IMG/VR virus record: IMGVR_UViG_2693429524_000006
Length of the DNA: 7,351 nucleotides
Reading direction: 5' to 3' (one strand)
DNA from: a virus
Lineage: Duplodnaviria > Heunggongvirae > Uroviricota > Caudoviricetes
The notes below the pieces were generated by a model. The model saw only the letters and a list, made by a program, of their open reading frames with translations, searched no databases and was not told the DNA's origin. The translations under genes and the position numbers were made by a program. Positions 996-1,784 of the stretch are shown here, piece by piece (within the stretch, counting starts at the first letter, position 1; every line of letters starts with the position of its first letter).

Positions 996-1057
996 TCTGC
1001 GGATTCCCGCCCGGGCGGCGGTGGCATTCGTTAAAAACAAGGCCGCAAGAGCGGCCT
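996..1057. repeat. 62-bp direct repeat, copy 1 (partner 3940..4001)
   Basis: near-identical to 3940..4001, differing in the hairpin loop (AAGA vs GAAA); contains 12-bp palindrome CCGCCCGGGCGG (1007-1018) and GGCCGC/GCGGCC hairpin (1041-1056). Confidence 0.7.
1031..1056 (-). terminator. intrinsic terminator for 1056..1784 (minus strand)
   Basis: on the minus strand GGCCGC-TCTT-GCGGCC followed by TTGTTTTTAA; hairpin abuts the TAG stop. Confidence 0.55.
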
Positions 1058-1784
1058 AGCGTTTCGCTTTGTGCTCGTCCCAGCACGTTTTGCACCATGC
1101 CATTAAGCCATCCGCATTTTGATTATTAGGGTAAAAGCTGGTTCGTTTTCTGCGGACATTACAAATTGGGCACCACTTCATATGACGTGTATTCTTTGGG
1201 CCATCGAGACACCTTGCACACCACTTAGTCAATCCATCTGGATTTTTTGACGATTTCCTGAATTTTTCATATGGAAGGTTTATTCTGCATCGCAAACACT
1301 GCTTGCGGGCACTTGAAACTTCGTTAGCTGATTCTTCTTTTGACGGCGATACAGAAGGTATTCTTGCTGGCTCTGATACTGCCTGAGGTGCTTTTCTAGG
1401 TGACTGAGACGATACGTCATCACCAGGGAATCTTCCATGATATGCCGGACGCGTTAACACCCCAGGTGGAAGCTCTGCTGTAAATGGCTTTGGCTGAATC
1501 AGTTGCCTCTCTTTTGCTAACTCCTGCTGTTTATAATATGTCTGGATTACCGCACTATCATAAGCAGAAGGTGCGGAAATATTAGGCGCATTACCTCCAG
1601 TTTTTTGAAACTGAGTAGAGGTGTGTTCTATCACCTGTGTACGATTAATCGTTATCTCCCCATCTTCGGTCTTTATCGTTTTGTTATGATTAACGACCGT
1701 ACGATCAGAGATCTTAGTCTTGTTCTGGTTGATAACGTAAATAATCACCGCAACCACACCAACAACTATCCAGAAAACTTCCAT
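1056..1784 (-). CDS. membrane-anchored protein (242 aa) with N-terminal TM helix, Pro/Ser-rich linker and two C-terminal zinc-ribbon-like repeats
   Basis: ATG at 1784 with GAGGAAA about 7 nt upstream; hydrophobic residues 2-18; tandem repeats CLRC..DGLTKWCARC and CPIC..DGLMAWCKTC. Confidence 0.8.
   Translation of the reverse strand: MEVFWIVVGVVAVIIYVINQNKTKISDRTVVNHNKTIKTEDGEITINRTQVIEHTSTQFQKTGGNAPNISAPSAYDSAVIQTYYKQQELAKERQLIQPKPFTAELPPGVLTRPAYHGRFPGDDVSSQSPRKAPQAVSEPARIPSVSPSKEESANEVSSARKQCLRCRINLPYEKFRKSSKNPDGLTKWCARCLDGPKNTRHMKWCPICNVRRKRTSFYPNNQNADGLMAWCKTCWDEHKAKR

Follow-up and report, generated by a model that had tools for sequence, protein, structure and literature searches.

The window analysed here is a 7,351-nt stretch of virus DNA (Caudoviricetes; IMG/VR record IMGVR_UViG_2693429524_000006), and its host element is a phiV10/epsilon15-type prophage of Escherichia coli. 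Within the immI-like accessory region of this element, among neighbouring cassettes of antirepressors and toxin-antitoxin genes, lies an open reading frame (ORF) on the minus strand (1056-1784, ATG start) that encodes a membrane-anchored tandem zinc-ribbon protein of 242 aa. It is a real gene, organised as a stand-alone cassette of operator, Shine-Dalgarno sequence, ORF and terminator. Two observations on this gene are new: a palindrome that flanks the repressor gene of the matching prophage also lies upstream of the zinc-ribbon gene, and distant homologues of the gene are found directly 3' of cI in four lambdoid contexts. The gene and its parts are laid out as follows:

1040-1057, minus strand: intrinsic terminator hairpin, AGGCCGCTCTTGCGGCCT with a T-run, directly 3' of the stop codon (terminator scan)
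1056-1784, minus strand: coding sequence of the membrane-anchored tandem zinc-ribbon protein, stop codon at 1056-1058
1059-1184, minus strand: zinc module 2, residues 201-242 (C205, C208, C231, C234), then a C-terminal helix (PHROG profiles and domain model)
1185-1310, minus strand: zinc module 1, residues 159-200 (C163, C166, C189, C192)
1311-1628, minus strand: disordered Pro/Ser/Ala/Gln-rich linker, residues 53-158 (composition, model confidence, indels and polymorphism)
1629-1700, minus strand: juxtamembrane β-hairpin, residues 29-52, motif TIKTEDGEI.I.RTQV (AlphaFold and conservation)
1722-1778, minus strand: N-terminal transmembrane helix, residues 3-21, predicted N-out/C-in (hydropathy, flanking charges and AlphaFold)
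1791-1795, minus strand: Shine-Dalgarno sequence GAGGA, 6 nt 5' of the ATG (read from the sequence)

An earlier, sequence-only reading of this DNA had described one N-terminal transmembrane helix, a Pro/Ser-rich linker and tandem CxxC repeats, and hydropathy, composition and AlphaFold modelling all bear this architecture out. The single hydrophobic segment (residues ~2-21) reaches a Kyte-Doolittle maximum of 2.7 over 17 residues, every other window of the protein staying at or below 1.0. AlphaFold, supplied with a 29-sequence alignment, modelled the helix at residues 3-21 with a predicted local distance difference test (pLDDT) score of ~90, the hairpin (strands 29-39 and 42-52) at ~52-68, which is moderate confidence, the linker at ~42-64 per 10-residue block and the C-terminal domain at >90. 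Linker residues 60-158 consist of 13% Pro, 13% Ser and 11% Ala. Only Met-Glu, with a net charge of -1, precedes the helix, and NQNKTK...R, with +3 across the next 22 residues, follows it. The C-terminus is thus predicted from the flanking charges to be cytoplasmic (N-out/C-in), with about two residues outside the membrane; the same prediction had been drawn before from the lack of positive charge ahead of the helix, and a corresponding bias in 64 of 76 relatives with the same architecture lends it further support. The segment was also considered as a signal peptide, which was ruled out: there is no positive n-region and no AxA site, the core spans ~17-19 residues, and the protein carries eight zinc-type cysteines.

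These eight cysteines all fall in four CxxC pairs (163/166, 189/192, 205/208 and 231/234), which are distributed over two ungapped repeats of 42 aa with 15 of 42 positions identical by manual count. Both repeats read CxxC-x16-DGLxxWCxxC; the two DGLxxWCxxC elements had been recognised from the letters alone, with a spacing of 17 to 19 residues that needs correction to 16. A Foldseek search of the PDB with the full-length model returned nothing (best E = 1.8) because the disordered linker dominates that model, and the C-terminal domain was then modelled alone, which gave a pLDDT of 88 and a predicted template modelling score of 0.67. Both the sequence and the fold of the zinc modules are similar to those of modules in HNH/ββα-Me endonucleases (Hpy99I and the N-terminal motif of PacI), the Cys4 zinc-stabilised β-β-α module of this class being present. 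This match and the net charge of +15 on residues 159-242 strengthen the label 'nucleic-acid-binding type' that the domain had been given before. PHROG profiles of endonuclease VII, HNH and Lar-like proteins match residues 197-241; these matches are partial only (e.g. positions 8-52 of 142) and apparently concern the accessory ribbon, not a whole nuclease. Pfam yielded no HNH or Endonuclease_7 match at E <= 1, and a PDB sequence search gave a weak match to PacI only. Inspection of an alignment of homologues (A1) showed that the HNH catalytic pattern is missing in both repeats, with no conserved His after the first CxxC and no Asn/His metal ligand directly after the second. Pfam did return Stc1 (PF12898) at 21.3 bits (E = 4e-4), below its gathering threshold of 24.8 bits; the protein has eight conserved cysteines and two predicted zinc sites within ~84 residues, as is typical of the Stc1 type, and two multi-repeat relatives (P0066 and P0073) pass the threshold with 60.9 and 56.2 bits. 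Judged by sequence, the modules are zinc scaffolds of the nuclease type that lack the catalytic residues. Nucleic acid is their probable ligand, given their positive charge and the helicase and nuclease partners of such modules elsewhere, with binding of protein, as by the protein-protein adaptor Stc1 (PMC2875855), as the alternative.

Over its whole length the protein matches PHROG 6762, a family of unknown function (residues 1-242 against profile positions 1-242 of 242; E = 2.8e-147, 490 bits). The sequence-only reading had found no named family to which the protein could be assigned, and this still holds, since PHROG 6762 has no assigned function, the Stc1 match is sub-threshold and neither PADLOC nor NCBIfam (no meaningful match in the latter) gave anything useful. 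Homologues form 33 clusters at 90% identity from Escherichia, Superficieibacter, Enterobacter, Citrobacter, Salmonella, Serratia, Providencia, Pectobacterium and Buttiauxella. Seven of the eight cysteines, D183, G184 and W188 are invariant in alignment A1, and the eighth cysteine, D225 and W230 of the second repeat and several basic residues are invariant or nearly so. The same applies to the membrane-proximal residues F4, W5, G9, Q20, N21, T39, G42 and E43; T39 and G42 of the hairpin are strictly invariant, E43 nearly, and the hairpin motif is retained in distant homologues. The linker varies in length by indels among the homologues. The gene is under constraint, and the ratio of non-synonymous to synonymous polymorphism (pN/pS) across five E. 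coli alleles is 0.09 in the zinc domain, 0.34 in the transmembrane helix plus hairpin and 0.68 in the linker (0.30 overall).

When 1.84 billion representatives were searched with a profile, 1,681 matched at E <= 1e-3. Among 180 related proteins gathered, 76 combine a membrane helix with zinc modules in the same way, with a mean C-domain charge of +13.8 and 43-143 residues between the helix and the first CxxC. A further 91 lack the N-terminal helix and have zinc modules that often form arrays of 2 to 6 or more, and some of these helix-less relatives also bear ResIII/DEAD or Upf1-like helicase domains or HEAT repeats. The gene itself is present in 129 of 5,426 complete E. coli genomes (~2%) and was detected by tblastn in 6 of 50,697 phage records, phiV10 not being among the matches. 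The copy in TL-2011b, which its record labels merely as misc_feature, aligned by tblastn from residue 19 onwards; translation showed it to be intact, so that an N-terminal truncation was ruled out. Prophages of Serratia, Providencia, Pectobacterium, Aeromonas and Acinetobacter carry the gene as well. The protein is thus a member of a catalogued family without assigned function, in which a known type of zinc module stands in an uncharacterised membrane-anchored arrangement.

The genomic context of distant homologues links the family to immunity regions. A homologue of 29.5% identity in Aeromonas phage phiARM81mr begins 19 nt beyond the CI repressor gene and is read from the same strand. The order CI/Peptidase_S24 repressor, a gap of 20-54 nt and homologue, with a divergent cro-like gene, is repeated independently three times more: once in a set of three similar metagenomic contigs, once in an Acinetobacter genome and once in another metagenomic contig. 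No terminator was evident between repressor and homologue in the one metagenomic intergenic sequence that was read. The slot after cI is the one occupied by rexAB in lambda and bstA in BTP1, and is known as a hot spot of cI-transcribed abortive-infection genes (PMC8585504). The gene in the window is not adjacent to cI but forms a separate cassette in the immI-like region. It lies between the genes for the tailspike and an internal virion protein, in either orientation, in prophages of Providencia and Pectobacterium and in most E. coli prophages; in Buttiauxella it resides in a different integrated element, and in Providencia no antirepressor gene is nearby. A virion or structural role was considered and rejected because the gene stands by itself, has a terminator and an operator of its own, is found in both orientations and in different mobile elements, and is present in lambdoid immunity regions. 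We conclude that the gene is a mobile stand-alone accessory that keeps landing in immunity-related regions.

Upstream of the ATG lies an operator-like palindrome, TTACC-N5-GGTAA, which is present in 6 copies in the window against 0.18 expected. The elements upstream of the zinc-ribbon gene and the other palindrome copies are:

1805-1819, strandless: operator-like palindrome TTACCTTAAAGGTAA, extended as ATTACC..GGTAAT at 1804-1820, centre 28 nt 5' of the ATG
1813-1818, minus strand: weak -10-like hexamer TACCTT, overlapped by the palindrome, whose left half-site doubles as the -10
1836-1841, minus strand: putative -35 hexamer TTGATC, weak, 17 nt 5' of TACCTT
273-287: palindrome 5' of the gene for the 211-aa protein; a further copy, with one mismatch, at 172-186
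1898-1912 and 4980-4994: palindromes in two c4/isrK leaders
2950-2964: palindrome upstream of the YafO cassette

The matching prophage contains 14 exact copies, 13 of them intergenic, and none occurs in ~23 kb of flanking host DNA (prophage palindromes at 14519, 14581, 15293, 15341, 17600, 17662, 20155 and 23131 of locus L014 and at 15322, 18133, 19274 and 39180 of locus L002). Two pairs flank the gene of a helix-turn-helix repressor, in positions like those of a left (OL) and a right (OR) operator, and other copies stand ahead of lysis and packaging genes, of toxin-antitoxin cassettes and of the leaders of antirepressors. phiV10 and vB_EcoP_ZX5 encode a repressor with 100% identity to the one in this prophage, and the lytic cycle is blocked when the ZX5 repressor is overexpressed (PMC9782041). 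A Pectobacterium prophage with a 43%-identical repressor has the palindrome between the repressor gene and a divergent cro-like gene, and again upstream of a Bro-N gene, a HicAB-like cassette and the zinc-ribbon gene. Comparison of the sequences 5' of the orthologues from E. coli, Pectobacterium and Superficieibacter shows no conserved block other than the palindrome, which keeps a constant distance to the ATG; the Providencia orthologue has the variant TTAACC-N5-GGTTAA in the same place. A promoter-like TTGACA-16-TACCTT lies in the equivalent position in Pectobacterium. Since the palindrome overlaps the putative -10 and is centred a mere 28 nt from the ATG, repression is the only plausible mode of action, and activation was ruled out on this geometry. 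The gene would accordingly belong to the regulon of the phiV10-type repressor; it is predicted to be silent in the lysogen and to be switched on by infection or induction. Taken together, the distribution of the palindrome suggests that one repressor directly controls many scattered units across a phiV10/epsilon15-type prophage, in a manner that resembles the dispersed operator network of P1 C1.

Several neighbours share the palindrome. As stated in the sequence-only reading, the zinc-ribbon gene is divergent from the leader of antirepressor B, in which matches to isrK and C4 antisense RNA were obtained. This leader is one of two P1-type immI leaders, which precede antirepressors B and C (1936-2134, plus strand, and 4757-4956, minus strand), match isrK with 77.9 and 67.7 bits and C4 antisense RNA with 77.7 and 61.2 bits, and contain c4 a1/b1 targets; they are mutually inverted (repeat I2, 171 nt, 88% complementary). 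In the matching prophage, the first Bro-N gene is preceded by a third such leader (L002, palindrome 18133). The YafO-family toxin gene (Pfam E = 9e-6; PHROG 1651) belongs to a cassette of two plus-strand ORFs (3025-3204 and 3152-3724) with the palindrome ~60 nt upstream, and the HicAB-like cassette in Pectobacterium is arranged alike (L008, palindrome 7398). The 59-aa ORF that overlaps the 5' end of the YafO gene may encode its antitoxin, and the pair may be under the control of the prophage repressor. At 328-963 (plus strand), a 211-aa uncharacterised accessory protein (PHROG 1349) is encoded with its own palindrome and terminator.

But what could a prophage gain from a basic zinc domain tethered to the membrane of its host? 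We tentatively favour, while granting it clearly less than an even chance, an immunity-linked protein of the exclusion or abortive-infection type, whose predicted ligand on the cytoplasmic side of the inner membrane is nucleic acid or a DNA-protein complex. The conserved N-terminal helix would insert in the inner membrane, and the flexible linker of ~100 residues would hold the compact, very basic two-module Cys4 domain in the cytoplasm. As its modules are of the type that scaffolds and positions DNA in HNH/ββα-Me nucleases, the domain could bind nucleic acid or a DNA-protein complex at the membrane, with exclusion or abortive infection of a competing phage as the outcome. DNA might be trapped while entering, or its binding might, as in the Rex system, drive association of the conserved membrane helices. 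In the phage studied here, the prophage repressor would shut off transcription and release it upon infection or induction; in lambdoid relatives, the gene would be co-transcribed with cI instead.

Several points weigh against this proposal. Binding of the repressor to the palindrome is suggested by position, and the promoter that it would occlude is weak and was not called by a consensus promoter scan. The predicted silence in the lysogen is atypical for exclusion genes of prophages, and repression here conflicts with the co-transcription with cI in distant homologues, which lowers our confidence. No match to a known defence or exclusion family was obtained in PADLOC, Pfam or NCBIfam, the sole PADLOC-DB 2.0 hit being TniQ at E = 0.38, which is noise. 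A literature search likewise found no membrane-anchored zinc-ribbon exclusion protein, and Silas et al. report nothing of relevance. The superinfection-exclusion or sensor role put forward by the sequence-only reading therefore fares unevenly: the distant homologues 3' of cI in four lambdoid contexts speak for it indirectly, but classical superinfection exclusion expressed by the lysogen does not fit, because the operator over the putative -10 predicts that the gene is off in that state. Exclusion genes can be expressed in lytic growth, as are T4 imm and lambda rexB, the latter from pLIT.

Expression with early and lytic genes, as predicted from the operator, would also suit a tether for the phage's own DNA that organises replication or completes genome entry. 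The early protein p16.7 of phi29, which serves the replication of its own phage, has an N-terminal membrane helix, a spacer and a C-terminal homeodomain-like DNA-binding domain; the zinc-ribbon protein shares this layout, ending in a basic domain of a class that serves DNA handling in nucleases. Its fold is different, though, and there is no sequence similarity to p16.7. A core role in replication or entry is unlikely because the gene is patchy (129 of 5,426 E. coli genomes, 6 of 50,697 phage records, phiV10 not among the matches) and immunity-linked, and lambdoid relatives have it in the lysogen-expressed cI operon. We regard this reading as unlikely. The constant association with immunity elements might instead reflect a modulator of the lysis-lysogeny switch, that is, a membrane adaptor that sequesters the repressor, an antirepressor or a host factor via LIM/Stc1-like modules as part of the immI circuitry. 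The gene adjoins cI in lambdoid phages, is divergent from the c4/isrK-ant operon in E. coli prophages and has a repressor operator upstream, and the sub-threshold Pfam match is to an adaptor (Stc1; PMC2875855). Set against this, no co-varying partner gene was found, the Providencia gene has no antirepressor nearby, the Buttiauxella gene is in a different element, and both the extreme positive charge and the relation to nucleases speak for nucleic acid as the ligand. We rate such a modulator as slightly less probable than the tether.

Derepression together with the lytic genes would also be expected of a host-takeover or toxic early protein of the Kil/Icd kind, which might perturb division, nucleoid organisation or membrane integrity during lytic growth. 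The well-conserved membrane helix and juxtamembrane motif suggest a specific membrane partner or self-association, and the gene adjoins P1-type c4/ant modules; the c4/ant operon of P1 also encodes the division inhibitor Icd. Yet in four lambdoid contexts the gene is part of the cI operon, which implies that growing lysogens tolerate the protein, and Pfam and PHROG searches revealed no similarity to known Kil or Icd proteins; we consider this explanation improbable. Least of all do we expect a membrane-bound HNH/ββα-Me nuclease that cuts incoming DNA. Zinc modules related in fold and sequence occur in Hpy99I, in PacI and in the endonuclease VII/HNH proteins of phages and would suggest one, but the lack of the catalytic His and Asn/His, of any HNH or Endonuclease_7 match in Pfam at the threshold used and of more than partial PHROG matches makes it very improbable.

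Returning to the exclusion or abortive-infection reading, the comparison with known systems shows both likeness and difference. From HNH/ββα-Me endonucleases and Stc1, the zinc-ribbon protein differs in having its modules fused to a membrane anchor, with neither catalytic His/Asn nor a nuclease domain; to our knowledge, no characterised protein carries nuclease-type zinc modules on a membrane anchor. Its distant homologues occupy the same slot 3' of cI, on the same strand, as the genes of RexA/RexB and BstA, and the logic of Rex, in which a cytoplasmic DNA-related sensor is combined with a membrane component, is similar. There is no homology to RexA, RexB or BstA in Pfam, PHROGs or PADLOC, and the zinc-ribbon protein is a single chain with one membrane helix, in contrast to the several membrane spans of RexB; unlike the rex genes, the gene in the window carries a repressor operator and lies away from cI. 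T4 Imm and P22 SieA are small phage-encoded inner-membrane proteins that act after adsorption, and T4 Imm is produced at an early stage of lytic infection, in agreement with the timing predicted for the zinc-ribbon gene. Neither is homologous to the zinc-ribbon protein according to Pfam and PHROG searches, and neither is known to us to carry a zinc domain or a nucleic-acid-binding domain in the cytoplasm.

The 3' end of the gene is a mosaic junction, at which two elements have counterparts in the flank of antirepressor C:

996-1057, plus strand: 62-nt repeat, 97% identical to 3940-4001
4018-4036, minus strand: short remnant that looks like the final codons plus stop of the zinc-ribbon gene, 3' of antirepressor C

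The repeat is the relic of the 3' end of a gene for a 53-aa 'transmembrane anchored protein' together with a shared terminator. A resemblance between 1057-1084 and 4014-4040 had been taken earlier as a sign of module exchange; the similarity exists but is shorter, covering 1061-1081 and 4018-4036 with 18 matches and one mismatch over 19 aligned positions and two 1-nt gaps. Its local alignment score of 23 compares with 12.5 +/- 2.2 for shuffled sequences and was reached by 0.25% of them, and the similarity is credible because it adjoins the 62-nt direct repeat. Its GGGAYGTGC part is also present in the 3' flank common to all three ant copies, so that the junction resembles the product of recombination at a short, shared boundary sequence. 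An exchange of modules at this point is plausible from the sequence. The 53-aa protein (3817-3978, plus strand) has a signal-peptide-like N-terminus and matches PHROG 14503, 'membrane associated protein'; the last ~40 nt of its gene and the terminator are duplicated beside the zinc-ribbon gene, the relic of the gene spanning 996-1036. A 12-nt palindrome, GTGACATGTCAC (4004-4015), lies at the junction and recurs ~65 nt 5' of the Superficieibacter zinc-ribbon gene (L010).

Elsewhere in the window, three antirepressor genes differ in their N-terminal domains (Bro-N at 2182-2877; AntA at 4051-4707, minus strand; a third cut by the window start) and share a near-identical C-terminal module and 3' flank of 96-97% identity (1-184 corresponding to 2779-2962, and 2622-2900 to 4028-4306 inverted), a pattern of domain shuffling among Ant proteins within one prophage. 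The 115-aa ORF at 5142-5489 (plus strand) has the P22_AR N-terminal domain only (E = 6.6e-32), its UTME-14 equivalent is annotated as incomplete with the C-terminus missing, and it is probably a truncated fourth antirepressor. At 5805-7190 (minus strand), a large internal virion protein (PHROG 16310 and 342) is represented by its C-terminal part only, a 461-aa ORF; the whole gene measures 3,390 nt in the intact prophage. Most matches to the window end at 7238-7241, but two genomes that carry IS3-family insertions at the corresponding site remain matched through 7351 (7242-7351); the gene is probably interrupted by an insertion sequence element, which would leave the prophage defective. Between these two ORFs, an uncharacterised 98-aa protein (5490-5786, minus strand; PHROG 21905) with apparent hydrophobic segments is conserved beside the internal virion genes of E. 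coli and Providencia prophages.

Our proposal for the zinc-ribbon gene can be extended to its relatives, in a form that we consider possible but doubtful. The family would then comprise single-polypeptide, immunity-wired exclusion or abortive-infection proteins, in which membrane-tethered, dead HNH-type zinc modules sense or trap foreign phage DNA or DNA-protein complexes and either block entry or, as in Rex, collapse the membrane potential through helix association; coupling to the repressor would be achieved by co-transcription in lambdoid phages and by an operator in phiV10/epsilon15-like phages. If the exclusion function is true, a compact one-gene system would join the prophage defences of immunity regions beside rexAB and bstA, and zinc modules derived from nucleases would have been reused as a membrane-tethered sensor or trap for DNA. 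Such a phenotype would bear on phage host range in the Escherichia, Serratia, Providencia, Pectobacterium, Aeromonas and Acinetobacter strains that carry the gene.

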